From Promethearchaeota archaeon (lineage in GTDB: Archaea; Asgardarchaeota; Lokiarchaeia; Sigyniarchaeales; SOKP01), in assembly GCA_048940925.1 (NCBI GenBank), contig JBHLOC010000034.1, positions 23,069 through 51,150 on the forward strand: a stretch of 28,082 nucleotides of DNA. Reading direction: 5' to 3'. Positions 3,768 to 23,502 of this stretch are shown piece after piece. The notes under the pieces were generated by a model. It was not told the DNA's origin. It saw nothing but the letters and a program-made list of their open reading frames with translations, and did not search any database. A program made the position numbers and the translations under genes. The first letter of the stretch is position 1, and every line of letters starts with the position of its first letter.

Positions 3768-3933
3768 ACTTTTAAAAAAACATGGTAAAATATATTAAAA
3801 TTTTGGAAAAAAAAAATGTTATCTCAAAAATTTAAATTATTCAATGATAAGTGCAATATTATAAAAGAAAAAGGGAAATTAAAAAAATCTTAAATGAAAT
3901 TTTCCAGATTAATGAACTAGATAAACTAATTGC

Positions 3934-4761
3934 TTAAAACTCATAACCACATTTTTTACAAACGTGTTTTTTTGCATACATTGGAATATGACCGACGTAA
4001 CTTAAAACTTTACTTTTATCTTCAACAGTTTTTATGTCAGTTCCAACCGCACCGCACATGGGACAAGTAATGCGCTCATCACTAGCAAATCCACCTGCAC
4101 CAATTTCTGGGGGCTTTAATTCATCCAATTCAGTTTCAACTTCTTGTAGGTGCGCAGTTGTAGATTCAATTGTTTGTTCCTTTTCTGCAAGTGCATCATT
4201 TAATTCTTGAATTTGAGTATCTCGTTGTAATAATGTATTATTTAATTCACTTAATTGAGAATTCAAAGTGGAAAGTTCTGAATTTAGATCTTCATTTTCA
4301 GATTTTAATTTATTTAATTCATCTTGGTTAGAGGAAATTGCGTTATTTATTTCGGATAATGTGGATTCTAAATTAGTGACGGTTGATTTAGCAGCTTCAA
4401 TCTCTGACATTAGACTATTAATTTGTGAATCTTTATCTGTTAAGTTAGTTTTGTGTTCTTCTATTTCAGTATTTAAGCTATTGATGGTTTGATCTTTTTG
4501 AATAATATCTGCTTTAGTTTCTTCGAGCGTGTTTTTAGTTTGAGTGAGTTCACTTTCAGTATTTTCAAGTTTTATTTTAGTATCAGCCAGTTCATTCTTA
4601 GTAGTTCCAAGTTCCTCTTGAGAATTTGATAATTCGGATGTTGCATCAGATAATTGTTTTTCTAAATCATTTACTTTATCTCTAAGGTCTAATAGAACTT
4701 TACCTATAACTGAAACTTTCTTATCGGGTTTTTCTTCTGCCTTTACCCAATCTATAGAAAT
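3934..4761 (-). CDS. Long coiled-coil protein with C-terminal Zn ribbon (~275 aa, probable ATT start)
   Basis: The 158-aa track ORF is open for a further 117 codons upstream with continuous heptads (SIDWVKAEEKPDKK...LRDKVNDLEKQL...TKNELADTKIKLENTESELTQTKNTLEETK). AGGTGA at 4773-4768 lies 6 nt before ATT at 4761. The C-terminus has CPMCG...CKKCGYEF. Confidence 0.8.
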   Translation of the reverse strand: MSIDWVKAEEKPDKKVSVIGKVLLDLRDKVNDLEKQLSDATSELSNSQEELGTTKNELADTKIKLENTESELTQTKNTLEETKADIIQKDQTINSLNTEIEEHKTNLTDKDSQINSLMSEIEAAKSTVTNLESTLSEINNAISSNQDELNKLKSENEDLNSELSTLNSQLSELNNTLLQRDTQIQELNDALAEKEQTIESTTAHLQEVETELDELKPPEIGAGGFASDERITCPMCGAVGTDIKTVEDKSKVLSYVGHIPMYAKKHVCKKCGYEF

Positions 4762-4767
4762 AATACT

Positions 4768-4773
4768 TCACCT
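4768..4773 (-). promoter_or_regulatory. Shine-Dalgarno-like site AGGTGA
   Basis: Matches the archaeal GGAGGTGA consensus and lies 6 nt upstream of the putative ATT start. A TATA-like TTTATATA lies at 4835-4828. Confidence 0.6.
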
Positions 4774-4966
4774 TATTTAGATACTTAATAATTTCGTATT
4801 GAATTTATGAATTTATTTTTTTAATGTTATATAAATCATATTGAATTAAGATTTTAATTGTTTTTCTTTTTGCTAATTAGATGAGTTAAAATAAATATTA
4901 TGATTTAATTAAAATCGTAGCTATAATATAATATAAAGAAATCATAATCAAAGTTCGATCGGTTCA

Positions 4967-5839
4967 ATGGAAAATACAGATGATCTACAATTTGAAATTG
5001 ATTTTATATCAACATCAGGTGCATATAAAACGTTATTTTCGTTTGTTATAATTTTACAGTTATTTATTGGTTGGACAATTATAATTTTTGTTAATTTATG
5101 GTATTATAACGATCTTTATTATCTTCTAACAGGAAAACGATTTTTAACCTTTATTTTAATTGGTGAATGGTGGGAATGGTTTTTACTCCCATTAAATCTT
5201 TATGGCAATCTTTTTTTATTCGCATTTTCAATTATCTTTTTTTCAGCAGGAATTTATAAAATTTTAAATAAATTAAGTCCCCCTAAAGAAGGAATATTTG
5301 AAAAAGGGAGCAGGGAATGGAAATATACTCATCGTAGATTCTGGACAGCGTATTTTCCAATTTGGTTAGCAAGAGCTTTACCAATTCCATGGTCCGATAT
5401 TTTTGTGTATCGATTCTTTGGGGTATCCATAGGAAAAAATGTAGTGGCTTATGAAGGATATATTGATCCTGAGTTTATTGAAATAGGAGATTATACAATG
5501 ACATCTCTAAATATTTGTATATTTTCTCATTTGATATACCATGATAAATTAATAATTAAAAGAGTTAAAGTGGGTAAAGCTTGTGTTGTAGGGCCTCAAA
5601 CAATCATCAGTCCAGGAACTATAATGGAAGATGGTGCTGTTTTGGGAGCAAATAGTTATACTTGGATAAAACAAAAATTGGAAGGCAATTTAATTCATGT
5701 TGGAACACCAGTGACTACGAAAATTCCTATACAAACCTTAGAGGAATCACAAGAAAAAGCAGAGAGAATAAAGGAAGAAATTAATGATAAAAGAACTTAT
5801 TTAAGTCATAAAACCAAACAGGAGGGTTCTGATAACTAA
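4967..5839 (+). CDS. Membrane-anchored left-handed beta-helix (hexapeptide repeat) acyltransferase-like protein
   Basis: N-terminal TM segments, PPKEGIF motif, then YRFFGVSIGKNV...IEIGDYT...IFSH...VKVGKACVVGPQTIISPGTIMEDGAVLGANS...GTP. Confidence 0.85.
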   Translation: MENTDDLQFEIDFISTSGAYKTLFSFVIILQLFIGWTIIIFVNLWYYNDLYYLLTGKRFLTFILIGEWWEWFLLPLNLYGNLFLFAFSIIFFSAGIYKILNKLSPPKEGIFEKGSREWKYTHRRFWTAYFPIWLARALPIPWSDIFVYRFFGVSIGKNVVAYEGYIDPEFIEIGDYTMTSLNICIFSHLIYHDKLIIKRVKVGKACVVGPQTIISPGTIMEDGAVLGANSYTWIKQKLEGNLIHVGTPVTTKIPIQTLEESQEKAERIKEEINDKRTYLSHKTKQEGSDN

Positions 5840-6580
5840 ATGTTTCAACCTGCAAGTTTAAAAGGGGCTTCTCCAACCCCTATAGATGAGAGAATTAGAA
5901 ATAAATATCTTTTTATTTATGTGATAATAATAATTTTAAGTTTAATTCCTTGTTCGATATTTGAATATTTTTACATTTTACTTTTTTGGAAGCCTAAAAT
6001 ATATTTATTCTTCTTTATACTATTTCCTATTAATTTCATAATAGTTCTATATATTCTTCAATTATCAGCTATTTTGTTTTCAGTACTATTTTTGAATATT
6101 TTAAGATTACTTTACCCTCCTGAAGAGGGGATATTCAATAGAGATATCACTGATAAAAATTATTTATTCTGGAATCTGAGAAATATCACTAAAAAGTGGG
6201 CTCTTTTTATTACAGCTTCTAATCCCTTTCCTTGGTTAAAAAATCGATTTACACTTAGATTTTTTGGAGTAAAAATTGGTAAAAAAGCAATTTGCGATAA
6301 TTGCTGGATCTCCTCAGAATTTGTATCGATTGGTAATGATGTTATTATTGGAATGAATAGTACCCTATTAAGTTTTGGAATTGTGCAAGATAAATTCATT
6401 TTAAAAAAGATTATTATTGAAGATGATGTATTAATTGGAGCTAAATGTGTAATATTACCAGGTACTCACATAGAAAAGAAAGTGAAATTATCTGCTCATT
6501 CATATACTAATTATAATGAAATATTAAAAGAAAATTTTATATATGCCGGTCATCCAGCTAAAATAAAACAAAATATTTGA
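5840..6580 (+). CDS. Membrane-anchored LbH acyltransferase-like protein, paralogue of the upstream gene
   Basis: TM segments, PPEEGIF, LRFFGVKIGKK...VSIGNDVIIG...IIIEDDVLIGAKCVILPGTHI...YAGHPAK. The ATG directly follows the upstream TAA. Confidence 0.85.
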   Translation: MFQPASLKGASPTPIDERIRNKYLFIYVIIIILSLIPCSIFEYFYILLFWKPKIYLFFFILFPINFIIVLYILQLSAILFSVLFLNILRLLYPPEEGIFNRDITDKNYLFWNLRNITKKWALFITASNPFPWLKNRFTLRFFGVKIGKKAICDNCWISSEFVSIGNDVIIGMNSTLLSFGIVQDKFILKKIIIEDDVLIGAKCVILPGTHIEKKVKLSAHSYTNYNEILKENFIYAGHPAKIKQNI

Positions 6581-6582
6581 AT

Positions 6583-8178
6583 ATGATATCAGAAAAGATT
6601 ATTAAATTAAATTCTAAACAGAGAGGAAAAAATAAGAAAAGACTAGTAATTATATCAGATACACATATAAGTCGGTCAATGGGTGCATTTAATCTTCATG
6701 CATACAATTTAGGTATAAAAAAAATCAATGAAATAAAGAATGCTTCTCTCTTTCTTCATCTTGGAGATATTACTCATACAGGGACATTATTAGAATATGA
6801 ATATGCCATAGAACAATTTAAAAAATTTGATCCAGTATCAAAATGTCCACTAATGATTCTAATTGGAAATCATGATGCGATGAATGTGGGATACCTGCTC
6901 TTTGAGGAGATGATTGGTAAAAGAGACTATGAATATGAAGATGATGAGTTATATGTTATAGGAATAGATAGTACTAAACCAGATCTACCTGGTGGAATCA
7001 TTCATCACTCTACTATTGATGATGTTCGAAAAAGATTAGAAAAACCAGAAAGAGAGAATAAGTTTAAAATAGTTTGTTTTCATCATCAGCTAATACCGAT
7101 CCCAAACACTGGAAAAGAGAGATCTGCTATTGATGACTCCGGGGATATGCTTAAAATGCTTTTAGAAGCAAAAGCAGACTTAGTTTTAAATGGCCATAGA
7201 CATACATCGAATTTATATACAGTAAGTAGTAGTGAAAAAGATTTATATATTTTTAATGCAGGTACCTTTTGCTGTAATAAAACAAGATATCGAGATTTAT
7301 TTTCTTATTCAATCATAGATATTGAAGATAACAATATTATTTTTAAGGTCATTCCAATATTAAATTCTAATTCTATACGTGAAATTCATCGCGAAGTCAA
7401 TTACTATGTCCCCTTAGAAAAAGAAAGGGGTCAAAAACCACTATGTAGATTTATACAAATATCACATTCATTAATTAATGAACAATCGGAAAACAACACT
7501 ACAAATTTAGATCGTGCTATTAAGAAAATAAATGCAATCAAAGATGTAGATTTAGTAGTGCATGCTGGAAATGTAACAAAAAACAGTATGAAAGATGAAT
7601 TTAGAATAGCAAAAGATAAACTGAATAATTTGAAATATCCTTATTTAGTTGTACCAGGATATACCGATTCGAAACCACCAGCTTGGGAATACTGGAAACA
7701 TTATTTTGGTGAATTTGATCCGTTATATGAGAATGAAAAAATATATTTCCAGGGGCTAAACTCTACTACCCGAGATTCTACTGAGGGATTTATTGGAAGA
7801 AAAAGAATGAATAAATTTATTGAAAAAGTTTTATCTCATAGTCATCAAAAAATCTTTGGTGTGTGCTGTTTTCATAGTTTAATTCCTACTCCTTTAAGTG
7901 TTTGGAGAACAGAATTAAATGATTCTGGAGATGTTCTTTCGCAATTTGCCCATTCTCAAATTGATCTTTGCTTAAATAGTTCCCCAAGTATCGCTTTCAA
8001 TGTAAAAGTCGATCATACAGTGTTTTCTAATGGAGGGAACCTTAATCCTGAACGATTTGATGAAGCTTTTATCGAAACGGAAATTTATAAAAAGGGATAT
8101 GTAATCTTAAAAGAACATAACTTGAAAACTGATCATATTAAGAATGTAGGTACTTATAATATTACAATTTTTATTTGA
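6583..8178 (+). CDS. Calcineurin-like (Icc/CpdA-type) metallophosphoesterase with a duplicated, degenerate second domain
   Basis: Domain 1 has ISDTH, GDIT, GNHD, FHH and GHRH. Domain 2 has ISHSL, GNVT, GYTD, FHS and NSSP. ATG at 6583 is preferred over TTG at 6577. Confidence 0.88.
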   Translation: MISEKIIKLNSKQRGKNKKRLVIISDTHISRSMGAFNLHAYNLGIKKINEIKNASLFLHLGDITHTGTLLEYEYAIEQFKKFDPVSKCPLMILIGNHDAMNVGYLLFEEMIGKRDYEYEDDELYVIGIDSTKPDLPGGIIHHSTIDDVRKRLEKPERENKFKIVCFHHQLIPIPNTGKERSAIDDSGDMLKMLLEAKADLVLNGHRHTSNLYTVSSSEKDLYIFNAGTFCCNKTRYRDLFSYSIIDIEDNNIIFKVIPILNSNSIREIHREVNYYVPLEKERGQKPLCRFIQISHSLINEQSENNTTNLDRAIKKINAIKDVDLVVHAGNVTKNSMKDEFRIAKDKLNNLKYPYLVVPGYTDSKPPAWEYWKHYFGEFDPLYENEKIYFQGLNSTTRDSTEGFIGRKRMNKFIEKVLSHSHQKIFGVCCFHSLIPTPLSVWRTELNDSGDVLSQFAHSQIDLCLNSSPSIAFNVKVDHTVFSNGGNLNPERFDEAFIETEIYKKGYVILKEHNLKTDHIKNVGTYNITIFI

Positions 8179-8342
8179 TTCGAAATAAAAATTTATTCAG
8201 ATAGTAACTCTCAGTTCAGAAATTTATCTAATTTTAATAAAAAATAAACTTAAAAAGCATATTTTTTTTATAAAACTAAATATAACGTTGACAAATGCTG
8301 TTTCAAAACTTAAATAGTTTAAAATAAAAATAAGGCATTTTT

Positions 8343-8624
8343 ATGGCAAGAGTAAAATTAAATTTGTTAAATATATTCCAGTTGAAACTTAATAAAAAGT
8401 CAATTGAATATGAGGGTAAAACTGTTGGTGATATTATCTCAAAATTTTTGAATGAATATAAAGAAAAACTTGATGATGCTATACTAAGTAAAAATAAAAA
8501 GAAGTTCCATCCCCAGATTCTCATATTACTAAATGGACGGAATATAAAGTATCTTAAAAATTATAAAACTCGGCTCAAAGATGCAGATGAGATATATTTA
8601 TCTTTTGCATTAGCAGGAGGATAA
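8343..8624 (+). CDS. MoaD/ThiS/SAMP-family ubiquitin-like beta-grasp protein
   Basis: 93 aa with TVGDII, ILILLNGRNI, TRLKDADEI and a C-terminal di-glycine (ALAGG). Confidence 0.9.
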   Translation: MARVKLNLLNIFQLKLNKKSIEYEGKTVGDIISKFLNEYKEKLDDAILSKNKKKFHPQILILLNGRNIKYLKNYKTRLKDADEIYLSFALAGG

Positions 8625-8771
8625 ACGTAACAAATTTTTATTCAATAAGCTTAAATAGCAAAAATATCTTATTTTTTTTACATAATACGATTATTTATTA
8701 GAAGTATTTAATATTGAATACCTTAGATTGTAATTTTTTTTTTATAATTTAGTAGGTGATATTTTATACAT

Positions 8772-9710
8772 ATGGCTCTCCACAAGGTATCTTTCTGTGG
8801 GTTAGATAATGCAGGTAAAACCAGTATAATCACAGCAATCACAAGACGCTTCGGTTTTGAGGAGGAAGTTGCAAGATTATCTCCAACAAGAAGAATTGCG
8901 AGAGATACATTCAGATTTCTAGGAATTGAGTTTACAAGAATGGACTTCGGGGGACAAAAGCAATATAGGGAAGAGTATTTAAAACGCCCAGAAAAATATC
9001 TTGGGGGAACAGATTTAATGTATTATGTAATAGATGCTCAAGATTTTAATAGATATATTGAATCTATAGACTATTTAGAGCAGATTTTGCTCTTCTTTAA
9101 GGAAGAACAGGAATATATTCCGATCTGTATTCTTTTTCATAAGTTTGACCCTCAACTTGTGGATGATGTGCAAATTAATAAGAGAATCCTCACTCTAAAA
9201 CAAGCATTAACTAGATATTCAATTGATTTCGATATATTTTTCTTTGAAACGACGATATTTGATATAAAATCTGTTATGGATGCTTTTTCAAATGGCTTAT
9301 CAATGCTATTTGAGAAAATGGAAATGGTTTCTAATTTATTTTCAGAAATAAGTGAAAACTACAATGCTATTTTAATAGCTTTATTTGATGCTAAAGGGAT
9401 CACCCTTGGAGAATTTTATCGCCCTCATCTTCAATTACAAGAGAAAATAAAGATTTATGAAATATATTTAGAACTTCAAAAACGGGTTGTTGCTGAAAAT
9501 CGCGTTTTATATGAATTTTCTGATACATTTGAAAGTGGAGAAAGGTTTTCAGGAGTTATAGAAGTATTAAAATTTGGAAAACTTGATTTCTATTTATTAT
9601 TTATTGTAGAAGAAGATGAAAAAAACTTAGAACAAACAATTGTTCTTTTAGATAAAATCGAGTCAGCTAAACCTCAAATGGAAAATCTTATTCTTCAGAT
9701 TATCCAATAA
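8772..9710 (+). CDS. Rag/Arf-like small GTPase with C-terminal roadblock/longin-like domain
   Basis: G1 GLDNAGKTS, G2 SPT, G3 DFGGQ, G4 HKFD and G5 ETTIFD (Rag-type HKxD and TSI[WY]D pattern). The ~130-aa C-terminal alpha/beta domain includes ILIALFDAKGITLGEF and FYLLFIVE. GGTGAT lies upstream. Confidence 0.88.
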   Translation: MALHKVSFCGLDNAGKTSIITAITRRFGFEEEVARLSPTRRIARDTFRFLGIEFTRMDFGGQKQYREEYLKRPEKYLGGTDLMYYVIDAQDFNRYIESIDYLEQILLFFKEEQEYIPICILFHKFDPQLVDDVQINKRILTLKQALTRYSIDFDIFFFETTIFDIKSVMDAFSNGLSMLFEKMEMVSNLFSEISENYNAILIALFDAKGITLGEFYRPHLQLQEKIKIYEIYLELQKRVVAENRVLYEFSDTFESGERFSGVIEVLKFGKLDFYLLFIVEEDEKNLEQTIVLLDKIESAKPQMENLILQIIQ

Positions 9711-11255: not shown

Positions 11256-14200
11256 ATGATAAAAAAACAAAAAGTGAAATCTTTATCATTGCTTTTGATG
11301 ATTTTAATAACTAGCTTTTTTACTTTTCTCCAATTAAACTTATTTTTCATGGACACTGATAAGTTCGATAAGGACTCAGAAATAATTACTAATCCAAAAA
11401 CAAGTATAAAAGGTAATGCTTCGTGGTGGGATAAATCATATCGATCCAGACAGTTAATTAATATTACAAATCCTTATCCTGTAAACTTCGAGAATTATGG
11501 GGTGAGTATTTCTTTCAATTATACTGATCTAGTTAATCAAGGGCAAATGAATTCCAGTCTAAAAGATGTAAGAATTATTGAATATGACTCTGAGGGAATT
11601 CCTTTTATAAGAAGATATTACTTTAAGATGAATTACCCGCAACAAGATATAGCGACTGTATGGTTTGATACAAATATTTCAGCTAGTACTACTGAATATG
11701 ATACGTATTTATACTACGGGAAAGAAACTGCACAAATAGATGATGAAGGGCATTATTTTATGAACACTGCTACAAATTCCCCATCAGATAGTTTTGGTTT
11801 GATTAGAAATGGAAATTTTGAATTAGATGTCAAAACAGGCACTTTAATTGATGGTACTTTTGGTTGGAATTTTACCGATGATGTACCTGAGGATATCGGT
11901 CCAGGTTATGCACCGAATGTTCCAGGGGCAAATTATCAACATAATTTATCAAATTATGTTGGCCAACATGAAGATGTGTATGAAGGAGATTATTCATTTA
12001 AATGGGGTACCACTGATCATTATTTACCTTCAGAAGGTTCTAGCAATGAATTTATAGGTACATTATTTAGTTATCCATTTATTGTTCCTAAGATAAGCGG
12101 AGCAGGATCACCTAAACTTTATATTCAAACATGGCGAAATGTTAGATTATATGATATGAGTAATCCTAGATGGATAGAATTTTATGCACGAACTTCAAAG
12201 GATTATAGTCAAACAATGGATACTGGACATAATGGTTTACCTGATGGACTTGCAGAGGATTGGATAAGTATAGGAGACTCAAAAGGATCAGAGTATATAG
12301 CAGAAAATCAATTAGATTTATCTCAAGCTAATACATATATAGGTGAATTAATGGATGTAATTTATCTAGATGTAACTAATCATCAAGGAGAACTTATATT
12401 TCTGGAATTTGGCATGTGGGGTATAGAAGGAGATAAAGTATCTGCATTTGCACAGGTTGATGATGTGAGATTTAATTATATTTTAACTACAGTATTAAAT
12501 CCTGAAATAGAAGAACGAAGATCAGATATTACAATTATAACTAGAGACGTTGATGGAAGGCTTGTTCCTAATGCCGAAGTCTCATTAATGAATATGTCAG
12601 ATTCTATTGAGACTAAATTTACTTCTCTAGATGATGCTTCAGTTACTTTCACGGGAATTGATTTTGGCGAATATAATTTTACTGTAAATTATACATTGCC
12701 ATCTGGAAGGGAAGAAGAAATGTATAACAGTTTTGAGAACGGTGAAGGTCCTTTTTATATACAACAAGCTATAGAGAATGAAACACTTTATATTGATATG
12801 TGGACAATCGATTTTGAAATGGTTGATTTTGACAATGAACCACTAACCATGGGAAATATCACAATACGGGATGCTGATGATGAATTTTTAACTAATTTAA
12901 CTCTTAATGATGAAGGAAAAGCAACATTTCGTTGGAGAAATCAATCCAAATATTATTATAAAGTATGGTACGATAATGACGATTATAATTTAAACCCCAC
13001 TGCGTTAAATGCAAGTTATATCTTAAGAGATACTTACAATCAACTAAATAATAAGTATAGAACCGTTACGGTTGATATAAATGCAACAAATACTGCTTCA
13101 GGACCAAATTTTGCAGTTAGTGAACTTTTTTATACAGATGGCTCACGAACAGAATTAGGAAATAAAAAAATAATCAAAATTAACGTAACAATAACTGTCC
13201 CTGAACCAGCTTCAACACTTTCATCTGTTTCTATTTATTACATAGATAAAAATAATTCAACTGATGGAAATCTTATTTATTATAATGATAGTTATACTTT
13301 ATCTGATAAAATAAACTTGATCCAAATAGATATCAGAAATCCTCTTATTATGTCTGGTAATCTAAAGAGCGATAAATTTGAAGTGTATGGCTTGAAAATA
13401 GAAGTAATTGGTGAAAATTCGTCTCGATGTGATGGTATAATTAAATTGGATTCAATTGAGACATGTAATATTTATAATGTTACAGATTTATGTAAAGTGG
13501 ATATCAAAATTATAGGTACGGATTATGCTGGTGTTGCTGGATGTTATGTAATAGTAAACAGTTCAAATAGAGATGGTCTTTTTAATGTTTCTTTATTAAC
13601 AAAGGATCTCACGGGATACGCTTACGGACAAATTAATACTAATATCCCACTCTGGTATTTAAGAGGATATAATTATACTTTTTCATTAGAGTTTTTTGGA
13701 GAACATCAAGATTTAAATGTAACCGAATCAGATAAATGGAAACCATCTGGTCCTAGATATTCTTATAATTATCGATTAAATCAATCCGCAGATCTTATCT
13801 TTCAACTTTACCTAAGTGGTGGCATTAATACAAGTTGGTACCTAACTAGATTTGAAAACTTAATGATGGTAGAACAGGTAATGTGGAGTGAAGATATTAC
13901 AGTCTCAGTGAATTTCACCTTAACTACTGATGAATGGCAAACATCTAGAGCCGTTGATCCTCCTGCTACAGTGACTTGCACGATTAAAAGTACAGGAATT
14001 AGTGCTAAAGTTTGGTTAACATTAGATATGGACCCCGGAGTTGGTCCAGGTATTTATACAATAACATTTGATTCAAGTGTTTTATCAGCAGGTAATACGG
14101 GTAAGATTTATTCTATTATTGTATCTGGAAATAAGGCAGGATATAGTCTCCCAGCTAATGTGAGTACCACAATACTCATTAGTACAGTCCCCACTGTGTT

Positions 14201-15509
14201 GTCAATGCACGATTATTACAATTCCTTAAATGTTATATCAGAATTTTCTCAAACATTTGGGGAATTTGTAAATTTAACAGTAAAATATTATAATGATACA
14301 AATTCACCGTTAGAGAATGCTATATTGACTTATGAGTGGCTTAATCTTGATCCTATTCTGTTTTATGAAGATCCCATTAATGATGGATATTATACTGCAA
14401 CAATTGATACATCAATAGCAGAATCGTGGGGTTTAAAATCAATCAAGATTATTGCCAAATTAGAAAACTTTACCACACAGACTCTTATAACTTCTCTCAG
14501 CATTACACAAAGACCCACAACTCTTAATGGAGAAACAGACTTAGTTTACATTAACTCGAGAGTATGGGTAGAGGATTCTCATCTATTCGAATTTCAATAT
14601 GCCGATGTAATTGAAAATGAGATTATAGGGAATTTAACTACTGCTACTTTCATCTGGGAAAAGTTATATCCAAACGGAACTAGAGTTCCCGGAATACATG
14701 GTACTGGAACATTGATTCAAAATGCGAATAAAACCTATATACTAGATTTTAATACAGAATTAAGACCCGTTGGTTATTATTATTTGTATCTTACATTACA
14801 AAAACAAAACTATGAAGTAAAAGCTGCACTCATTAATTTAGAAATTATGTTACGAAACTTTACAGCCACTTTAGACGCAACAGGATTGAGAGACAACAAT
14901 CAAATCAGGGTAGTTCAAGGTGATGATATTAATTTTGAAATCACTCTATGGGATGAAACACGAAATATAGAACTTGAAAACGCAACAATTACACTCACTA
15001 TTGGAGGTAATGATTACATTGTTGATATGACGGCTTCGGGCGTATACGAATTAACATTTAAAACGAATGATATTAGTGCGTTTATTACTTCTAGAACATT
15101 CTCAGGTAGGATTACAATTCAAGCATCCAATTTCACAACCAAAGAAATTATTATTACTGTAATAGTTCAAATGGAGGAAATATTTCCAGGAATGCCTACA
15201 TTTTATTTTATCTTGATAACTGTATCAATTATAGGCGTTGTGGGGAGTTTGGTAGCCTATAGAGTTATTCAACAAGCAAGAATACCTAAACATGTTAAGA
15301 AGATCAGAAAAGTTAAAGGATATATCAAATCAAAAAAGAAAATCACTGAAACAGTTGCAGTTCCAACAAAAGAAGAGATGATAGTTAAATTATTTGGAAA
15401 TGAATGGAAAGAAATTGGTCTTTCAATTGAAAAAGTGTTAGGCATAGAAGAATTAAAACCTGAAAAACAACCATTAAAAGAATTTAAAAAGGGAGGTGAA
15501 AGCGAGTAA
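11256..15509 (+). CDS. Large cell-surface glycoprotein A: DUF2341-like domain, CBM-like beta-sandwich, Ig/CnaB-like stalk, C-terminal TM and cytoplasmic tail
   Basis: N-terminal signal/anchor, then WWDKSYRSRQLINITN...LKDVRI...VWF...YLYYG (DUF2341-like) and a LIRNGNFE...VDDVRF domain. More than 30 N-x-S/T sequons. TM FPGMPTFYFILITVSIIGVVGSLVAY is followed by a basic tail. Confidence 0.85.
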   Translation: MIKKQKVKSLSLLLMILITSFFTFLQLNLFFMDTDKFDKDSEIITNPKTSIKGNASWWDKSYRSRQLINITNPYPVNFENYGVSISFNYTDLVNQGQMNSSLKDVRIIEYDSEGIPFIRRYYFKMNYPQQDIATVWFDTNISASTTEYDTYLYYGKETAQIDDEGHYFMNTATNSPSDSFGLIRNGNFELDVKTGTLIDGTFGWNFTDDVPEDIGPGYAPNVPGANYQHNLSNYVGQHEDVYEGDYSFKWGTTDHYLPSEGSSNEFIGTLFSYPFIVPKISGAGSPKLYIQTWRNVRLYDMSNPRWIEFYARTSKDYSQTMDTGHNGLPDGLAEDWISIGDSKGSEYIAENQLDLSQANTYIGELMDVIYLDVTNHQGELIFLEFGMWGIEGDKVSAFAQVDDVRFNYILTTVLNPEIEERRSDITIITRDVDGRLVPNAEVSLMNMSDSIETKFTSLDDASVTFTGIDFGEYNFTVNYTLPSGREEEMYNSFENGEGPFYIQQAIENETLYIDMWTIDFEMVDFDNEPLTMGNITIRDADDEFLTNLTLNDEGKATFRWRNQSKYYYKVWYDNDDYNLNPTALNASYILRDTYNQLNNKYRTVTVDINATNTASGPNFAVSELFYTDGSRTELGNKKIIKINVTITVPEPASTLSSVSIYYIDKNNSTDGNLIYYNDSYTLSDKINLIQIDIRNPLIMSGNLKSDKFEVYGLKIEVIGENSSRCDGIIKLDSIETCNIYNVTDLCKVDIKIIGTDYAGVAGCYVIVNSSNRDGLFNVSLLTKDLTGYAYGQINTNIPLWYLRGYNYTFSLEFFGEHQDLNVTESDKWKPSGPRYSYNYRLNQSADLIFQLYLSGGINTSWYLTRFENLMMVEQVMWSEDITVSVNFTLTTDEWQTSRAVDPPATVTCTIKSTGISAKVWLTLDMDPGVGPGIYTITFDSSVLSAGNTGKIYSIIVSGNKAGYSLPANVSTTILISTVPTVLSMHDYYNSLNVISEFSQTFGEFVNLTVKYYNDTNSPLENAILTYEWLNLDPILFYEDPINDGYYTATIDTSIAESWGLKSIKIIAKLENFTTQTLITSLSITQRPTTLNGETDLVYINSRVWVEDSHLFEFQYADVIENEIIGNLTTATFIWEKLYPNGTRVPGIHGTGTLIQNANKTYILDFNTELRPVGYYYLYLTLQKQNYEVKAALINLEIMLRNFTATLDATGLRDNNQIRVVQGDDINFEITLWDETRNIELENATITLTIGGNDYIVDMTASGVYELTFKTNDISAFITSRTFSGRITIQASNFTTKEIIITVIVQMEEIFPGMPTFYFILITVSIIGVVGSLVAYRVIQQARIPKHVKKIRKVKGYIKSKKKITETVAVPTKEEMIVKLFGNEWKEIGLSIEKVLGIEELKPEKQPLKEFKKGGESE
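15492..15499 (+). promoter_or_regulatory. Shine-Dalgarno GGAGGTGA embedded in the 3' end of the surface protein A gene
   Basis: Perfect GGAGGTGA 9 nt before the ATG at 15509. Stop and start overlap as TAATG. Confidence 0.8.
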
Positions 15510-16621
15510 TGCCAATAGGTTTAGTATTAATGAGATGGGATATTAAAGTAAGTACTGAAATTCTTGCTAAATATCCTGAAGAACTAGTTATAAGTGAAGA
15601 GACATTAATGCAAATATATGCAGCACATGAATATACAGGTGAACCAGGAATGATTAGCTTATTAGTTGGTCCATTAAATATTGCTTCATACTACACTGGT
15701 CGAGAAAAACCACTTTATATTATTCTTATTTTAAACTTGGATGAAGATCCAGATACTTTTGAAGGAGGTTTAGCTGATATTTCACGAGTGATATTTCAAA
15801 ATTATGAAGACAATGCATATCTTGAAATGATTCCGTTCCTTTTCCAACGTTTATCAACTTATCCTTATTTAAATGAGGAACAAAGTTTAGCTATTACTTA
15901 TATTGATGGTGTAAATAGATTGATAATAAATAGGTTAAGAGATGAGGGCGTAATTTCTAAATCAGAGTTGAAAATTTGGTTAAAAGATAAGTATAGAGAA
16001 GGATTCTTTGATGTAGATGCGATACTTATGGAATTAATCAAAAGGGAAATAATAAAAGAAGCTTCTGTGAAAGGAATGCCTTCAGAACTAATATTTCTCA
16101 TAAATGATCTGTTTATGATTAGAAGACCTCCAATTAAACTTTTAGAAAATCCAATAGAACGAGGACTCCCTGATAAATTCGTTGAAGAGTATAATACAGC
16201 TGTAAAAAATTATTTTCAGAAATATAGTCCATCGGACGAGGACAATCTTAAAATTCTTGATAATGTTATAGCTGATCCTCAAGTCTATGAAATCCTGAAA
16301 TTATTAAGAATTTCAATCGTAACTAAGAATGTCTTAGAAAAACTTAGAAAAAAGGGAGTAGAAGACATAGATGGAGGATTGAAAAAGTTATGGGATTGTC
16401 AGATGATTCATGTATTCCAAGATACTAAAGGCAATGAGTATTATGCATTGCTTACTGACTTCTATAATTCATTGGTTTACCCAAAGTATATGTTAAAGAC
16501 AATAATTTATCAATATAGTGTAAAATCTAAGTCAGAAGGAGTATTAGTAGAATATCTAAACGTTCTTGAAGATACTTATCGACCAACTAAATTTTTAATA
16601 GAAGAAAAGAGTGAAGATTGA
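15509..16621 (+). CDS. Cytoplasmic protein with predicted N-terminal longin/uDENN-like domain and two winged-helix repeats (copy 1)
   Basis: The N-terminus has a beta-beta-alpha-beta-beta-beta-alpha pattern (GLVLMRWD...ILAKYP...LMQIY...ISLLV..NIASYY...IILILN...LADISR). Two repeats follow: RLIINRLRDEGVISKSEL...LMELIKREII and YEILKLLRISIVTKNVL...LKKLWDCQMI. The fold is inferred. Confidence 0.65.
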   Translation: MPIGLVLMRWDIKVSTEILAKYPEELVISEETLMQIYAAHEYTGEPGMISLLVGPLNIASYYTGREKPLYIILILNLDEDPDTFEGGLADISRVIFQNYEDNAYLEMIPFLFQRLSTYPYLNEEQSLAITYIDGVNRLIINRLRDEGVISKSELKIWLKDKYREGFFDVDAILMELIKREIIKEASVKGMPSELIFLINDLFMIRRPPIKLLENPIERGLPDKFVEEYNTAVKNYFQKYSPSDEDNLKILDNVIADPQVYEILKLLRISIVTKNVLEKLRKKGVEDIDGGLKKLWDCQMIHVFQDTKGNEYYALLTDFYNSLVYPKYMLKTIIYQYSVKSKSEGVLVEYLNVLEDTYRPTKFLIEEKSED

Positions 16622-16698
16622 TTATCTTAATTTTTCTTCTCTAATTTTATTTATATTTTTTTTCTTTGAAAAGTAGAAATATGAAATATCCAATTTTA

Positions 16699-17733
16699 TT
16701 ATTTTTCAGGTAAATAAGCCTTTAATTTTTGAGCCTTTTCAGAGAATTCTTTATAAAGAGAATCATCTCCTAATTCTAAACATAAATTCGAGATTTTCTC
16801 GAAATAGTTAGCAGTTTGAGCAATATCACCGTTTTCTAAACAAATTCTAGCTTTATTAATTAATTGTTCTCTTTCAAACAATGGTTGTAATAAAGGAGAT
16901 GCATCTGTGTTTATTTCTAAGATATCTGCGATTATTTGAATCATTTTATCACGATTTTCTGGATCGATTGCAACCATAGAATAAGTCTTCAAACCAAGAA
17001 TCTCTTGTATTTTATCGATTTTTAAAGCTTCAGGTAAATCTTGTTTATTCCCAATCACAGCAGTATGGGCATAAGGCGCATGTTCTCTGACTAATTCAAT
17101 GAAAAATCTACTTTTTTCTACATTTTCTAAAGTAGAATCCGTAATTATAAGAACCGCATCACTACCGAGAATAAAATCATTCCATAAATAACTAAATTGC
17201 TCTTGTCCTGCGAAATCCCATAAATGAAAATATAATTTTCCTATTTTAATTGTCGATATCTTTCCTGTAATTGTAGGTACATGAACAGAAGGGATCTCAT
17301 CCAAGCATATTAACTTTGTGGTTGTAGTTTTTCCTACTCCAGAAAAACCAACCAACGAAATTTTAGTTTTAAGATTTCTATGAGTTGTATCAATTATGGG
17401 GTCCAAAATCTCCATGAGAGCTGGATCTAAGTTTTCTATATCATTTCCGAATGTTTCTAAAAATTCTCCCTTTAAATTATCCAATCCTCTTTTTGTGCGA
17501 TCAATATCATCATTAATGTCTGTTATAAATAAAAAAGTTAATCCTATATCCTTTAATTGGGTATAAACAATTTTGAATTTAAAAAAATCATAACTATCAA
17601 GGCTAGTTCCTTTATCAGCGTCTTCTAATATCTCTTGATAGAATTTTTGAAAATCTTCAATAGAAAGTGCTCTTCCAAAATTTTTATTATACAACACTTT
17701 CTCATCTTTTAGGATGTAAACTTGTCTCAACAT
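16699..17733 (-). CDS. Longin-like domain + Ras/Arf-superfamily small GTPase + C-terminal helical (MIT/TPR-like) domain
   Basis: G1 GFSGVGKTT, G2 VPTI, G3 WDFAGQ and G4 NKQD. The N-terminal ~120 aa (LRQVYILKD.KVLY...IVYTQL..GLTFLFITD...LKGEFLETF) look longin-like. The C-terminus is amphipathic helices. Confidence 0.88.
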   Translation of the reverse strand: MLRQVYILKDEKVLYNKNFGRALSIEDFQKFYQEILEDADKGTSLDSYDFFKFKIVYTQLKDIGLTFLFITDINDDIDRTKRGLDNLKGEFLETFGNDIENLDPALMEILDPIIDTTHRNLKTKISLVGFSGVGKTTTTKLICLDEIPSVHVPTITGKISTIKIGKLYFHLWDFAGQEQFSYLWNDFILGSDAVLIITDSTLENVEKSRFFIELVREHAPYAHTAVIGNKQDLPEALKIDKIQEILGLKTYSMVAIDPENRDKMIQIIADILEINTDASPLLQPLFEREQLINKARICLENGDIAQTANYFEKISNLCLELGDDSLYKEFSEKAQKLKAYLPEK

Positions 17734-18166: not shown

Positions 18167-21100
18167 ATGATAACTAAAATACATAATAAGAAAAAAAACC
18201 TGAAGATCGCGATACTTTCGATTATACTTACCGCAAGCTTCTTTCTTTCTGTAGTACCAATGTTTAATTCTAATTCAGAGGATCCCAGTGTAGTTGAGAA
18301 TGAGGATCTTTCAGAGAAAACGCCATTATTGAGTACAATTGGTTATGATGTTTGGTGGAATGCATCTTTTCCTTACAGAAGACTTATTAACATTACTAAT
18401 CCTTTTGGGGTCGATCTAATTAACCGCACAGTATCAGTAGAGTTCAACTATTCGACATTAGTTAATGAAGGAAAGATGAACTCAAGTTTGAAGGATATCA
18501 GAATTGTAGAAAATGGAAGATTAAGGAATTATTTCTATATGCAAGATTTCCCCCAAACTGATTTAGCAACTGTATGGTTTCAAGCAAATATCACGTATGA
18601 TGCAGTTAATCCTGACATGGATACTTATATGTATTATGGAAATAATACTGTTGGACTTGATGAAACTTATTTTATGTCGAATATAGAATCGAATGAGATT
18701 TGGTATCAATTTGAAGAGGGGCAAGGTAGTGATGTTTCTGATTCAATAGGTAATTATAATGGTTTACTTTATGGAGGAATTTGGCAGAGTGAAGGAGCGA
18801 TAGGTGGAGCTTTAGAACTCAATGGTGTGAGTGATTACATAGCTATCTATGATAAGTATTATCAAAACGCAGGTGAAATTACTGAATTAACCATTTCTTG
18901 TTGGTTTAAAACATCTTTTGGAGGTGCAGGTCAATGGGATAATTGGGCTTTTTTCGATTATGACAGATCAGAATATTTCAATTTTTATATTAGAGGTGAT
19001 AACGGACGAGTAGGATTTTCATCTACGCACGGAACTTCAATTGACGATTTCAGTTCAAATGAGCAAAATTTAAATAATGGAGAATGGCATTTTGCTTGCG
19101 CAACATATGATGGAACCAATAAAAGGATTTATATTGATGGAGGGTCTCCTACGGTAGATACCGCTAATCCGACAGATATAGGGTCTGGTAATTATGTTAG
19201 ATATGGCTTTGTTGGTGATGGTTCTGAAGCAACTAATTTTGATGGTAATAGGAATAATTTTTATTATGAAGGACTTATTGACGAAGTCAGGTTTTTCAAG
19301 AATGCACTTTCAGCCAATGAAATCGATTTTATTTATAAAAATTATAGCGCTCCTGCTTACTTAAATGAAGAGCAGATAAAAGCCGCCAAAGTTACTATTA
19401 CAACTTATGATATCGATGGTGGAATAGTGGAAAATGCTAATGTTTCTTTATATAATGCTACTGGAGGTTTTGTAGTGAATGGTTTTACATCTAGCGATGG
19501 TTCAGTAACTTTTATAGATTTAGAGCAAGGAGGATATAATATAACTGTTCAATATACAATGAATGGTAATACCACCTTGGTCTATAATAGTTCTGATACA
19601 GAACCAGATCGATTTGATTTTCAAGAACTCGTTTATGATGAAGATATTATTACAGATTTATGGACAATTGATTTTGAAATAGATGATTGGAATGGAGATC
19701 CTCTTAATTATGGATACATTAATGTTAGTATTTCTGAAGGTGGACCTGTTCTTGATACAATAAATCTTGATGCTGATGGTTTAGCCAGTTTTGTATGGGA
19801 AAATAGAGGATCTTATTACTATGAAGTGTACTATAATAATAGTGATTATACTCCCATTCAAACTCCCTTGAATGCTAGTTATATCTATAGATCAGATTAT
19901 GATATTGAAGGTCAAAAATATCATAATTACGGCCCATTAGATGCTAATACTGAAAAGGTTTCTCTGCCTGCAAATAAATATTATATAGATTTTGATCTTT
20001 ATACTGATGGAAATTCAAGTTTTAATTACAACAAATTAAACAGAATCAATGTTACGATTAAAAATATGGATGATTTTCTTGAGAAAGTTCAAATTTTCTA
20101 CATTGACAAAGATGGACAAACATCAACATTAGATCATTTACTATATGAGAATGAAACTTACGCTGGAGGAACTTATGATAATGTCGAATTTAATATAAGA
20201 AATCCACCAGAAATCCCAGTTAAGTTACGAAATGATAATTTTGAAGTATATGGTATACATCTATATGTCGAATTTTACGATTCAGATGGGAGCACCAATG
20301 GCGTAATAGAAATTAATACCACTGAAGCATGTCATATTTTTAATAAAACTGACCTCACTAAAATAAAAATTAAAGTTCTTGATAATACACTTAATGCGCC
20401 AGTATCTGGCGTTATTGTTCATGTGACAAATCAAACAAATTCAATTGTAAATTTAACTACCAAAGCTGATGGATTTGCTTATGGTATTATAAATAGCGAT
20501 GTCGAATTTTGGTATACAAGAGGATATAATTATACTTTTAGTTTAGAGTATTTCGGACAATTAAAACCATTTTACATTAATAAAACAGACCCCCCTCAAT
20601 GGAAACCATCATCCCAAGTATCAAGTTATAATTACACTCCCCTTGGTAATTCATCCTTAATTTTTAAAATGGTGATTGATCCTTCCCAGTATAGCACGAA
20701 TTTTACATCTGTTTCAGGCTCTTCTTCTGCTACGTGGGGACAAAACCTTAATTTTCAAGTTACATTTGAATATACTGACCCTGTTGGAAGTGGACCTATT
20801 GACAATCCAGATACATTGACAGCGGTAGTTAAAAGTCAAGATACTTATGAAACAATGTTAACCAGAGAGCTAGGTGATTTCAGCCCCTTAGGAAGTGGTC
20901 AATTCTTATTGAGTATTAATTCCAGCCTGTTCTCCGCTGGAAATTCAAGTAAGAACTATTTTATCACGATTACAGGGTCAAAATCAGGTTATTCGAATCC
21001 ATCTCCAGTCTATCTTGGATTTACAGTCAACGCTGTTCCAACTTCAATTAGCATTCATGATTATGATAATAGAAACCTGGTCTTAACTGAGGTGTCGCAG

Positions 21101-22387
21101 TATTATGAAGAATCTATAAAAATTCCAGTTAAGTATTACATTACTAGTTCAGGTTCTGCGATAGCTGGTGCCACTTTAAGTTATGAATGGCAATTCGGTT
21201 CGGGACCTATTCCTACAGATCCGTCTGATTCTGATTATTATATTTTCGAAATTGATACATCAGTAGCAACTAATATCGGAAAATATAGAATTGATATTAC
21301 CGCGTACTATGAAAATTATAGCATGCAGGTAGATTATCCAGTTGATATTAATATCATAGCGCGACCAACTTTGATTAATGGGATAAGTGAATTATTGCAA
21401 CTCTCACCAAAATTATGGGTGAATGAATCAGCTAACTATACATTTGAATATAGAGATGTCTTAAGAGATGAAAGAGTTAGTGGATTAGAAACAGCATCAT
21501 ATACTTGGTTCAGATTAGATGAGAATGGTAATCCTCTTACTGGTGAAGGTAATGAGGGATTTGGTGATTTGATAGAGACTAATGACAGTTTGTATACCTT
21601 AGATTTTGATACTGAGACAAGAGAGGTTGGTGAATATAGTATTTTTGTATCTTTACAGAAAAACAGCTATGAAATTAGACATTCTTATTTAACTTTAACT
21701 ATTCAAAAACGATTGATAAACGCATCATTAGATATAACTGGTTTGACTGAAAACCGTATAGACATTGTGCAAGGAGATACTATCAAATTTAGAATAACTT
21801 TGACCGATCCCACCAATCAAGATCAATTATTAACAAGAGCAACAGTGACATTTACATTTCAAGGTAAAAATTATACGTTAACTCCAGATGAAAATGATCC
21901 TGGAGTATATATATTATCATTACCAACAAGTAATATAGATGCGTTTATACTACCAAATACACTACGAGGAATACTTACTTTTGAGAAGGAGAACTATGAA
22001 ACAAAAACTGTTGAATTGATTATTGTAGTAGGATTAACTGAGATTTTCCCAGGTATGCCTATGTTCTATTTTATATTGATTGTAGGCGGCATTGTAGCAG
22101 TAGTAGGCAGTTTAGCTACTTATCGATTTGTTCAACAAGCAAGGATACCTACTTTCGTCAAAAAAGCAAGAAAGATGAAAAAAGAAATCAAAGGTAAAAA
22201 AACAATATCGGAATCATTATTGTATCCTTCAAAAGAAGAATATCTTGTCAAAAAGTTAGGGGATAAATGGGATACACTTGGACTTTCGTTAAGAGATGTT
22301 TTAGGTGTCGAAGTCGAGAAAAAGAAAACAATACCTGAAATAAAAGAAGAAATAAAATTTAAAGAACCTATGGGAGGTGAAGATTAA
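18167..22387 (+). CDS. Large cell-surface glycoprotein B: DUF2341-like domain, LamG/pentraxin-like domain, Ig/CnaB-like stalk, C-terminal TM and cytoplasmic tail
   Basis: Paralogue of 11256..15509. LamG-like motifs WYQFEEGQG..VSDS, GALELNGVSDYI, TISCWFK, NNGEWHFACATYDG..KRIYIDG and GLIDEVRFF..ALS..EI. TM FPGMPMFYFILIVGGIVAVVGSLATY. Confidence 0.88.
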   Translation: MITKIHNKKKNLKIAILSIILTASFFLSVVPMFNSNSEDPSVVENEDLSEKTPLLSTIGYDVWWNASFPYRRLINITNPFGVDLINRTVSVEFNYSTLVNEGKMNSSLKDIRIVENGRLRNYFYMQDFPQTDLATVWFQANITYDAVNPDMDTYMYYGNNTVGLDETYFMSNIESNEIWYQFEEGQGSDVSDSIGNYNGLLYGGIWQSEGAIGGALELNGVSDYIAIYDKYYQNAGEITELTISCWFKTSFGGAGQWDNWAFFDYDRSEYFNFYIRGDNGRVGFSSTHGTSIDDFSSNEQNLNNGEWHFACATYDGTNKRIYIDGGSPTVDTANPTDIGSGNYVRYGFVGDGSEATNFDGNRNNFYYEGLIDEVRFFKNALSANEIDFIYKNYSAPAYLNEEQIKAAKVTITTYDIDGGIVENANVSLYNATGGFVVNGFTSSDGSVTFIDLEQGGYNITVQYTMNGNTTLVYNSSDTEPDRFDFQELVYDEDIITDLWTIDFEIDDWNGDPLNYGYINVSISEGGPVLDTINLDADGLASFVWENRGSYYYEVYYNNSDYTPIQTPLNASYIYRSDYDIEGQKYHNYGPLDANTEKVSLPANKYYIDFDLYTDGNSSFNYNKLNRINVTIKNMDDFLEKVQIFYIDKDGQTSTLDHLLYENETYAGGTYDNVEFNIRNPPEIPVKLRNDNFEVYGIHLYVEFYDSDGSTNGVIEINTTEACHIFNKTDLTKIKIKVLDNTLNAPVSGVIVHVTNQTNSIVNLTTKADGFAYGIINSDVEFWYTRGYNYTFSLEYFGQLKPFYINKTDPPQWKPSSQVSSYNYTPLGNSSLIFKMVIDPSQYSTNFTSVSGSSSATWGQNLNFQVTFEYTDPVGSGPIDNPDTLTAVVKSQDTYETMLTRELGDFSPLGSGQFLLSINSSLFSAGNSSKNYFITITGSKSGYSNPSPVYLGFTVNAVPTSISIHDYDNRNLVLTEVSQYYEESIKIPVKYYITSSGSAIAGATLSYEWQFGSGPIPTDPSDSDYYIFEIDTSVATNIGKYRIDITAYYENYSMQVDYPVDINIIARPTLINGISELLQLSPKLWVNESANYTFEYRDVLRDERVSGLETASYTWFRLDENGNPLTGEGNEGFGDLIETNDSLYTLDFDTETREVGEYSIFVSLQKNSYEIRHSYLTLTIQKRLINASLDITGLTENRIDIVQGDTIKFRITLTDPTNQDQLLTRATVTFTFQGKNYTLTPDENDPGVYILSLPTSNIDAFILPNTLRGILTFEKENYETKTVELIIVVGLTEIFPGMPMFYFILIVGGIVAVVGSLATYRFVQQARIPTFVKKARKMKKEIKGKKTISESLLYPSKEEYLVKKLGDKWDTLGLSLRDVLGVEVEKKKTIPEIKEEIKFKEPMGGED
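22373..22380 (+). promoter_or_regulatory. Shine-Dalgarno GGAGGTGA embedded in the 3' end of the surface protein B gene
   Basis: Perfect GGAGGTGA 6 nt before the ATG at 22387, with TAATG overlap. Confidence 0.8.
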
Positions 22388-23502
22388 TGCCTATTGGGTT
22401 AGTTTTAATGAAATGGGATGACAGAGCAGGAACAGAGGTTTTATCTAAGTATCCAGAAGAAATTGTTCTAACTGAAAAAACACTCATGCAGGTATATAGC
22501 ACTCATGAATATAGTGGAGAATCAGGAATGATAAGCCTAATGATTGGTTCCCTTAACATTGCTTCCTACTATACTGGTCCGGAGCAAAGCTTTTACATTC
22601 TTCTACTTTTAAATCTAGATGATGACCCAGATGCATATGAAGAGGGATTAATTGATATTTCTAGAATTCTCTTGCAGAATTTGGAGGATGATGCATATTT
22701 AAAGATGATTCCTTCATTATTTCGACGATTAGCGGTATATCCTACCCTCAATACTGAACAACGACTTGCGATTACATACCAAGATGAAATAAAACGGATG
22801 ATAATTAACCGTTTAAGAGATGAAGGTGTAGTGTCTAAGTCAGAATTGATGATTTGGCTAAAAGATAGATATAAACAAGGTTTTGTTGACATTGATGGAG
22901 TTATTATGGAACTAATTAAACGAGAGATAATTAAGGAAGCCTCAGTAAAAGGTATGCCCTCAGAATTAATATTTCTAGTAAGAGATATTTTGATTATGAG
23001 AGTTCCTCCTGTTAAAATCCTTAGTGATCCTTCTGCCCAAGGTTTACCCTCTCAATTTGTAGAGAACTATAAAACTGATGTTAAACGATATTTCCAGACT
23101 TATCGACCAACTGAGGGGGATAATTTGAGAGTGATTGATGTTCTTAGTAATCCTCAAGTTTATGAAACTATGCGTCTTCTTAGAACGGCAATTGTTACAA
23201 AGAATGAACTTGAAAAACTTAGAAAGAAAGGAGTTGAGGATCTGGATGATGTACTTAAAATGCTGTGGGATACACAATTAATTCAGGTATATAGAGATGA
23301 GCGAAATATCGAATATTATGCACTTCTTTCAGACTTTTATTTAAATATTATCTTTCCAAAATATCTATTGAACATAATAAAAACAGTATATGACCAGAAG
23401 TCTAAAGTTGATCAAGTTTTAATGGAATACCTTACTGTACTTGAAAACTCTTACCACGACATTAGAGTAGCTAAAAAAGAAGCAGCTAAAGCTGAAGACT
23501 AA
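22387..23502 (+). CDS. Longin-like + tandem winged-helix cytoplasmic protein (copy 2)
   Basis: Collinear paralogue of 15509..16621 with long identical blocks such as LNIASYYTG, IINRLRDEGV, MELIKREIIKEASVKGMPSELIFL and LEKLRKKGVED. Confidence 0.65.
   Translation: MPIGLVLMKWDDRAGTEVLSKYPEEIVLTEKTLMQVYSTHEYSGESGMISLMIGSLNIASYYTGPEQSFYILLLLNLDDDPDAYEEGLIDISRILLQNLEDDAYLKMIPSLFRRLAVYPTLNTEQRLAITYQDEIKRMIINRLRDEGVVSKSELMIWLKDRYKQGFVDIDGVIMELIKREIIKEASVKGMPSELIFLVRDILIMRVPPVKILSDPSAQGLPSQFVENYKTDVKRYFQTYRPTEGDNLRVIDVLSNPQVYETMRLLRTAIVTKNELEKLRKKGVEDLDDVLKMLWDTQLIQVYRDERNIEYYALLSDFYLNIIFPKYLLNIIKTVYDQKSKVDQVLMEYLTVLENSYHDIRVAKKEAAKAED

Follow-up and report, generated by a model that had tools for sequence, protein, structure and literature searches.

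Two neighbouring genes, A and B, in a 28,082-nucleotide stretch of DNA from a Promethearchaeota archaeon (the window, meaning the whole stretch that was analysed) encode surface proteins in which a constant scaffold carries unrelated heads; this arrangement is probably the outcome of a single ancient displacement of a LamG domain, followed by fixation, in tandem paralogues. The window has a G+C content of 30% and lies on contig C19 of a host assembly of 4.8 Mb in 90 contigs. The features relevant to the comparison are the following, with residues given as amino acids (aa) of each protein and the slot being the position occupied by the head:

11256 to 15509, forward strand: gene A, encoding the type-I membrane surface protein P0001 (1417 aa), an open reading frame (ORF) with hydrophobic segments at aa 7-32 and 1311-1338
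11406 to 11771, forward strand: N-domain of A (aa 51-172), weakly DUF2341-like and common to B, from the alignment with B and Pfam
11772 to 12488, forward strand: slot domain of A (aa 173-411), the swapped head, an orphan domain modelled as a CBM4/MAM-like jelly roll
12489 to 15185, forward strand: linker and stalk of A (aa 412-1310), CarboxypepD_reg or immunoglobulin (Ig)-like beta-sandwich domains, with weak Pfam matches to CarboxypepD_reg, Big_3_5 and SpaA
15186 to 15269, forward strand: transmembrane (TM) helix of A (aa 1311-1338), from a hydropathy scan
15270 to 15506, forward strand: cytoplasmic tail of A (aa 1339-1417), the best-conserved part of the protein by region-wise identity
15509 to 16621, forward strand: partner gene of A, encoding the cytosolic protein P0003 (370 aa), with a stop/start overlap with A
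16699 to 17733, reverse strand: Arf/Ras-like small GTPase gene between both cassettes (Pfam Arf, 8.9e-19)
18167 to 22387, forward strand: gene B, encoding the paralogous surface protein P0002 (1406 aa), from its ORF and BLASTP
18332 to 18676, forward strand: N-domain of B (aa 56-170), 156 bits with the hidden Markov model (HMM) of the N-domain and 48% identical to that of A
18677 to 19360, forward strand: slot domain of B (aa 171-398), a Laminin_G_3 or LamG jelly roll (Pfam PF13385)
19361 to 22042, forward strand: linker and stalk of B (aa 399-1292), from BLASTP, Pfam and HMM matches
22043 to 22384, forward strand: TM helix (aa 1293-1322) and cytoplasmic tail (aa 1323-1406) of B, from hydropathy and the alignment with A
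22387 to 23502, forward strand: partner gene of B, encoding P0004 (371 aa), 62% identical to P0003

Both receptors share the same topology, with an N-terminal hydrophobic segment, one C-terminal TM helix and about 80 residues after it; each partner gene, P0003 as well as P0004, starts on the final base of the stop codon of the preceding receptor gene. BLASTP aligns P0001 with P0002 end to end in a single collinear match at 35% identity, 37% between the two stalks, and the motifs bounding the slot are present in both proteins: YFMN or YFMS on the N side, and SDITIITRDVDG or AKVTITTYDIDG on the C side. When the regions were compared with Smith-Waterman scores against 200 shuffles, the N-domains gave a z of 43.9, the first stalk domains 36.2 and the TM-tail regions 46.8; for the slot cores (A173-398 and B171-376) the z was 1.2, and 23 of the 200 shuffles scored equally high. 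The discontinuity in the slot is therefore real and no chance effect. Profile-profile comparison with hhalign, using 56 A-type and 20 B-type slots, found a match only in the final strand and the linker after it (A399-429 with B369-413, probability 92.6%), pairing VDDVRF of A with IDEVRF of B; the C-terminal helix of LamG is an insertion within this stretch, and the cores did not align, the second match reaching 0.3%. A preliminary description of this DNA had proposed precisely this layout, with collinearity up to YFM(N/S), realignment on the C side, and unalignable domains at 11790-12475 in A and 18690-19345 in B; all of it was borne out, both intervals falling inside the limits listed above, and the possibility it had raised against itself, that the two inserts are alignable members of one family, was looked at and found not to hold. 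An assembly chimera was also considered for A and ruled out, since its layout recurs in more than 100 homologues of independent assemblies.

Regarding the identity of the two heads, that of B is LamG, as had been suspected: Laminin_G_3 (PF13385) matches aa 220-386 with 59.1 bits against a cut-off of 27.6 (E 7.1e-16), and the isolated slot reaches 63.1 bits, together with a weaker match to Laminin_G_2 (E 5.5e-5). The slot of A has no relevant Pfam match, alone or in any of the 56 A-type slots; Laminin_G_3 matches 0/56 of them at E ≤ 1, the CBM_4_9 model, that is, the family model of carbohydrate-binding module family 4 (CBM4), matches none either, a search of PDB sequences with the A-slot profile returned chance-level matches only, and NCBIfam has no match for P0001. 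An AlphaFold model built from the 56-sequence alignment is an all-beta sandwich (pLDDT 85, pTM 0.85), and its predicted jelly-roll fold superposes on CBM4. In a fold search of this model over 48,161 representatives, made independently of Foldseek, ConA-like folds (GH16, Emp47p, calreticulin) scored at most 8.5, and no LamG domain appeared in the top 50. The model thus suggests a CBM4/MAM-like jelly roll, a label kept to the fold level because the fold scores grade continuously, with no clean break; in addition, Pfam finds no catalytic domain in A, so that its slot does not qualify as a CBM in the narrow sense. Of the earlier assignment to CBM4/9 or galactose-binding-like sandwiches, the fold part stands, in the model, and the sequence part found no Pfam match in the 56 members.

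An exhaustive HMM search with the A-slot profile in 1.84 billion representative proteins gave 34 matches, all but two of them to the same receptor or its fragments, with the domain at about residues 150-480. One outlying match, P0204, was set aside as a repetitive Ig/PKD protein; the other, the choice-of-anchor J protein P0203, is weak (E 1.3e-5 for the whole library), and its hhalign match to the A slot (92.5% over 49 columns) covers the last two strands only, including the motif Q-I-D-N-V-K-F-N-Y-T. Judged from these profile searches, the A-type domain appears to be a jelly-roll family confined to this receptor context. As for the N-domain, the Pfam model DUF2341 (PF10102) gives 16.3 bits for A, below its cut-off of 23.4, and does not match B; among relatives, P0171 is at the threshold with 23.4 bits, the paralogue C described below has 18.1 bits, and NCBI gives the name DUF2341 protein to one homologue.

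The scaffold could be followed well beyond the window. P0001 alone has 181 homologues at E ≤ 1e-5, and database records assign the homologues of the large proteins to Promethearchaeota or Lokiarchaeia. With the stalk and tail sequences of A and B as queries, about 175 proteins were collected; they were anchored with HMMs built for the N-domain and for the first stalk domain, and the intervening stretch was clustered. This resulted in 116 proteins with the A-type head, about 20 with LamG, 23 with a head called T1 and two with a C type. T1 defines a third paralogue clade with a third jelly roll, and the A-type, LamG and T1 jelly rolls are mutually unalignable, so that at least three slot types exist, plus divergent LamG subtypes; among the latter, in the outliers P0125, P0131 and P0148, slot identity to all others does not exceed 31%, on scaffolds 47-54% identical to those of their kin, and P0148 has a pentraxin match. 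The position is therefore variable among homologues, as anticipated, and unrelated beta-sandwiches occupy one membrane-distal site of a constant scaffold made of N-domain, Ig-like stalk, TM helix and conserved tail.

More distant relatives extend this picture. In a sister family of the same order, two genomes (G036, G039) encode the N-domain with LamG, and two others (G038, G030) encode proteins of about 1600 aa whose head contains FG-GAP, or integrin-alpha-like, repeats (L018:2473-7302, L019:3939-8813); these proteins share the TM-tail of the family, and its partner gene follows theirs. Paralogue C (P0005, 2200 aa; L001:3323-9925), encoded on contig C43 in the window's own genome, unites in one reading frame a receptor with head, stalk, TM helix and tail and a partner-like domain, a natural fusion of two genes that the window keeps apart; its sequence and a partial Pfam match suggest that its head consists of DUF2341 followed by a LamG domain split by an insertion of about 190 aa. 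A paralogue of the window's GTPase, 40% identical to it, is encoded just upstream of this fused receptor (L001:979-3048). At locus L011 (genome G008), both receptors of an A-type/LamG pair (3222-8951 and 11623-17496) are about 450 aa longer, at more than 1900 aa each; the extra length lies within the stalk, and stalk length thus varies independently of the head.

The heads also differ from the rest of the ectodomain in their glycosylation sequons (N-x-S/T), which were counted against composition-matched shuffles. N-domain and stalk are enriched 2.1-2.8 fold, while the ratio in the slots is 1.15 fold for the A type and 0.48 fold for LamG; slot density was lower than stalk density in 112/112 A-type and 15/15 LamG proteins, meaning that the same pattern is found in two unrelated head folds. 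In A, the N-domain has 4.1 sequons per 100 aa and the linker and stalk hold 32, the slot of B has 0.4 per 100 aa, and neither tail nor partner has any. Such a distribution fits a glycan-shielded shaft with a bare functional or binding face, as far as sequon counts can suggest it.

The history of the heads was read from trees of the scaffold. In a FastTree phylogeny of 167 stalk-plus-tail sequences, with the slot excluded, all 116 A-type proteins and four fragments form one clade with a support of 100; in a quick IQ-TREE analysis of 43 sequences, the A type is again monophyletic (100) and nested among LamG lineages, four slot-type changes suffice for the whole tree, and the stem of the A clade measures 0.27 changes per site. 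LamG heads recur in the outgroup clade and in two genomes of the sister family (G036, G039), and parsimony therefore favours LamG as the ancestral head and the A type as one later replacement.

The main competing explanation is that no swap took place, the slot of A being the original LamG remodelled beyond recognition by a fast burst after the duplication. This idea draws on the fact that both slots are jelly-roll sandwiches of similar length at the same position, on the alignment of their last strand and linker, on the lack of any donor family in the 1.84 billion proteins searched, and on the slot being the fastest-evolving region of the A clade, where mean identity to the reference is 35% for the slot, 45% for the stalk, 53% for the N-domain and 67% for the TM-tail; the corresponding values in the LamG clade are 43%, 38%, 51% and 62%. 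The rates speak for displacement instead: outside the A stem, the rate of the slot exceeds that of the stalk by a factor of about 1.3 at most, far too slow to erase similarity on a branch of 0.27, so that divergence in place needs an extreme one-off burst. Besides, the last strand and the FNYT motif also match the choice-of-anchor J protein, and the motif may therefore belong to an incoming domain. The DNA of the closest available orthologue, at 63% amino-acid identity, is too diverged for meaningful synonymous rates. Altogether, remodelling in place is unlikely. Still, several points weigh against displacement, or against the functional reading of the heads: since the profile search identified no donor for the A-type domain, the word displacement rests on the discontinuity and not on a source; two jelly rolls of similar size with alignable last strands may reflect a very deep common origin or indeed remodelling; the large tree is from FastTree and the small one from a quick IQ-TREE search, with a rooting that relies on the joint clade of T1 and C; the sequon counts come from related proteins and are hence not independent; and a fold likeness to CBMs does not show sugar binding, which leaves ligand binding by the heads putative.

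On the cytoplasmic side, the receptors belong to conserved cassettes. All 11 fetched loci with an A-type cassette (L004-L012, L014 and L015) have the A-type receptor and its partner beside an opposite-strand GTPase gene whose product is 75-91% identical to that of the window, and the order of A-type receptor and partner, GTPase, LamG receptor and partner is complete on nine of them. Of the other two, L012 (G017) ends with its contig, and the LamG cassette of the same genome is on another contig (L013); in L015, from the complete 2.3-Mb genome G023, the LamG receptor is reduced to a 187-aa frame with the TM-tail (6311-6871), which may be a degraded or truncated receptor, and an intact partner gene follows. 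Two genomes have an additional cassette of T1 receptor and partner upstream. Across the loci compared, the partner gene is always downstream of the receptor gene. In a tree of 30 partner proteins, the branches separate according to which head the neighbouring receptor carries (A 100, T1 100, LamG 95), and the tails fall into sequence types that match the head types, with I-P, K-K and W as invariant residues; it follows that whole cassettes were duplicated and co-diverged.

The tail had been described as part of the constant scaffold, and it proved to be the best-conserved region (67% in the A clade against 45% for the stalk), with a predicted docking site on the co-encoded partner. For the 30 partner proteins, Pfam gave sub-threshold matches only (an extended winged helix at 0.052 at best; SufBD_N with 19.8 bits against 23.5); the PDB sequence search returned no match for the partner, and NCBIfam none for P0003. 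The complex of P0003 with aa 1336-1417 of A was predicted with each chain given its own alignment, and it reached an ipSAE of 0.80 (0.83, 0.79 and 0.80 in the single runs) against 0.00 for the best control; in the calibration of the method this mark was attained by 58/80 solved complexes and 2/110 mismatched pairs, counts that are rough since user-made alignments were supplied. The runs agree in at least 92% of the contacts, the partner has a pLDDT of at least 71, and the predicted interface joins partner residues 200-241 and 319-360 with tail residues 9-60. The model thereby supports docking of the A tail on P0003.

Several partner-like paralogues in the window's own genome have no adjoining receptor of this type (C43:21722-22864, C41:4718-5812, C41:19008-19385, C18:15862-16254, C8:40253-40894 and C78:16196-17479); some of them cover the N-terminal 120 aa or so only, and the one on C78 adjoins an ORF of 1817 aa with a faint tail match. 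Also encoded in the window are Gtr1/RagA-like and Arf-like small GTPases, a RuBisCO-like protein and a leucine-rich repeat (LRR) protein. The cassettes are flanked by genes for a Gtr1/RagA-like GTPase that is extended at its C-terminus, for a protein resembling the RuBisCO large subunit and for the LRR protein (8772-9710, 23611-24954 and 24960-25922).

These cytoplasmic elements bear on a second alternative, in which the heads are structural, mediating lateral or cell-cell contacts in a non-crystalline coat where different heads let the paralogues pack. A coat of this kind would suit the unordered surface densities and complex surface proteins of a cultured Lokiarchaeon (PMC9834061), the many sequons of the stalk, and the finding that an N-terminal LamG is the commonest layout of huge archaeal proteins, whose function is unknown (PMC11573180). 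A conserved tail, a dedicated and co-diverging cytosolic partner and a syntenic GTPase gene are unexpected for a purely structural coat, and the heads are kept poor in sequons, as for a binding face, a feature that would equally fit protein-protein packing; a solely structural role is accordingly judged improbable.

Finally, the distribution of the A-type head bears on how often heads move. Its profile matched 60 of 151 genomes and was limited to the window's taxonomic family, being found in 59/126 genomes of that family searched and in 0/24 from other families of the class. The matches lie almost always within an ORF of about 1450 aa and are nearly always single, as in the window's own genome; two matches occur in G086 and in G123, those of G086 being fragments of one domain. 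With a single copy in nearly every carrier genome, and the receptor context only among the 1.84 billion proteins, no donor or silent cassette of this head was found. The preliminary description had viewed A and B as members of a polymorphic family with an exchangeable tip, and this part of it found no support: slot type is congruent with the scaffold tree, so that cassette swapping is not frequent, and the trees show a single origin of the A type and no head exchange among its 116 homologues. Frequent exchange between scaffolds, as in phase-variable or cassette-switching adhesins, could appeal to roughly six turnovers among about 170 proteins (three or more unalignable types, the FG-GAP heads and the LamG outliers P0125, P0131 and P0148) and to tandem paralogues that would favour recombination, but it is very improbable given this congruence, the partner genes that co-diverge with head type, the near-absence of second copies, and an identity of just 35% between A and B, which means that no recent gene conversion has taken place.

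In the preferred and probable reading, a single displacement of LamG, A and B are tandem paralogues of ancient origin in a family of surface receptors restricted to Lokiarchaeia-type Asgard archaea, built from the outside in with a signal or anchor segment, the N-domain, a jelly-roll head, a glycosylated Ig-like stalk of about 900 aa, one TM helix, a tail of about 80 aa and a translationally coupled cytosolic partner. The ancestral head would be LamG; in the lineage to A, an unrelated CBM4/MAM-like jelly roll would have displaced it once and become fixed. Each genome thus has two or three lectin-like heads of different kinds on a common stalk and tail, and every receptor has a partner that diverged along with it; the heads may bind different extracellular ligands, probably glycans, and the contact between tail and partner would couple them to the cytoplasm. 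A further step, to be regarded as doubtful, would make the two or three tandem cassettes parallel input channels of an outside-in signalling or adhesion system specific to Asgard archaea, with unrelated lectin-like heads for different ligands, such as glycans of syntrophic partners, each tail leading to its own co-evolved adaptor and the adaptors converging on the small GTPase encoded in between; the displacement would have added a new input. If this were true, it would have extended an existing circuit of receptor, adaptor and GTPase in those prokaryotes that are most closely related to eukaryotes.

As such, the replacement of a domain among paralogous surface proteins is nothing unusual in evolution; what is less familiar is the setting, a little-studied Asgard receptor family. 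In the literature on Asgard and Lokiarchaeota surface proteins, no published description of this family or of a head replacement was found, and a preprint on Nerearchaeum mentions generic adhesin-like proteins only. Cryo-tomography of a cultured Lokiarchaeon showed unordered surface densities and complex surface proteins, with no S-layer and with the proteins not identified; in Lokiarchaeia, such proteins are believed to mediate the contacts between cells that underlie syntrophy and possibly eukaryogenesis (PMC9834061). The family described here is a concrete candidate for them, with its glycan-poor, lectin-like head, its sequon-rich stalk and its conserved tail, apparently wired to a dedicated partner beside a GTPase gene. 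Unrelated heads on one scaffold within a genome amount to a natural experiment, in which a change of head should alter binding and not the inner machinery, and the isolated heads, with about 230 aa each, lend themselves to glycan arrays and to structural work.

One of the closest known systems is that of the giant archaeal LamG proteins: among huge archaeal proteins, Laminin_G_3 at the N-terminus followed by CarboxypepD_reg-type repeats is the layout met most often, its function being unknown (PMC11573180), and B, as well as the ancestor proposed here, is alike in having LamG near the N-terminus and a long CarboxypepD_reg-like run. A and B add to that plan a conserved C-terminal TM helix, a tail of about 80 aa and a coupled cytosolic partner, and A carries another fold in the place of LamG. 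That fold opens with an N-G-x-F-E strand and closes with a V-D-D-V strand, in the manner of CBM4 domains (for instance CBM4-2 of the Rhodothermus marinus xylanase), related galactose-binding-like modules and MAM domains, and its profile is weakly similar to one choice-of-anchor J protein. In the A slot, N185-G-x-F-E189 and D402 are invariant and may form a structural metal site of the type present in many CBMs. Compared with CBM4, the A slot is about 70 residues larger, has no enzyme attached and lies outside every Pfam and NCBIfam model, its sugar binding being putative.

Eukaryotic adhesion receptors use LamG in neurexins, MAM in RPTP-mu and meprin, and FG-GAP in integrin alpha. The head folds met here, LamG, MAM-like and FG-GAP (L018, L019), are those same folds, and the type-I receptors of eukaryotes have the same topology and logic, with a lectin-like head, an Ig/FN3 stalk and a short adaptor-binding tail, the docking of the tail being predicted in the present case; stalk, tail and partner have no detectable sequence homology to them, and the likeness is one of architecture, not of membership. 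Modular bacterial adhesins and receptor-binding proteins of phages likewise place non-homologous, binding-type domains at one position of a conserved shaft. The exchange in the archaeal family differs from theirs: it is infrequent and old, and each orthologue group keeps a single fixed head, in place of frequent horizontal or intragenomic swapping.

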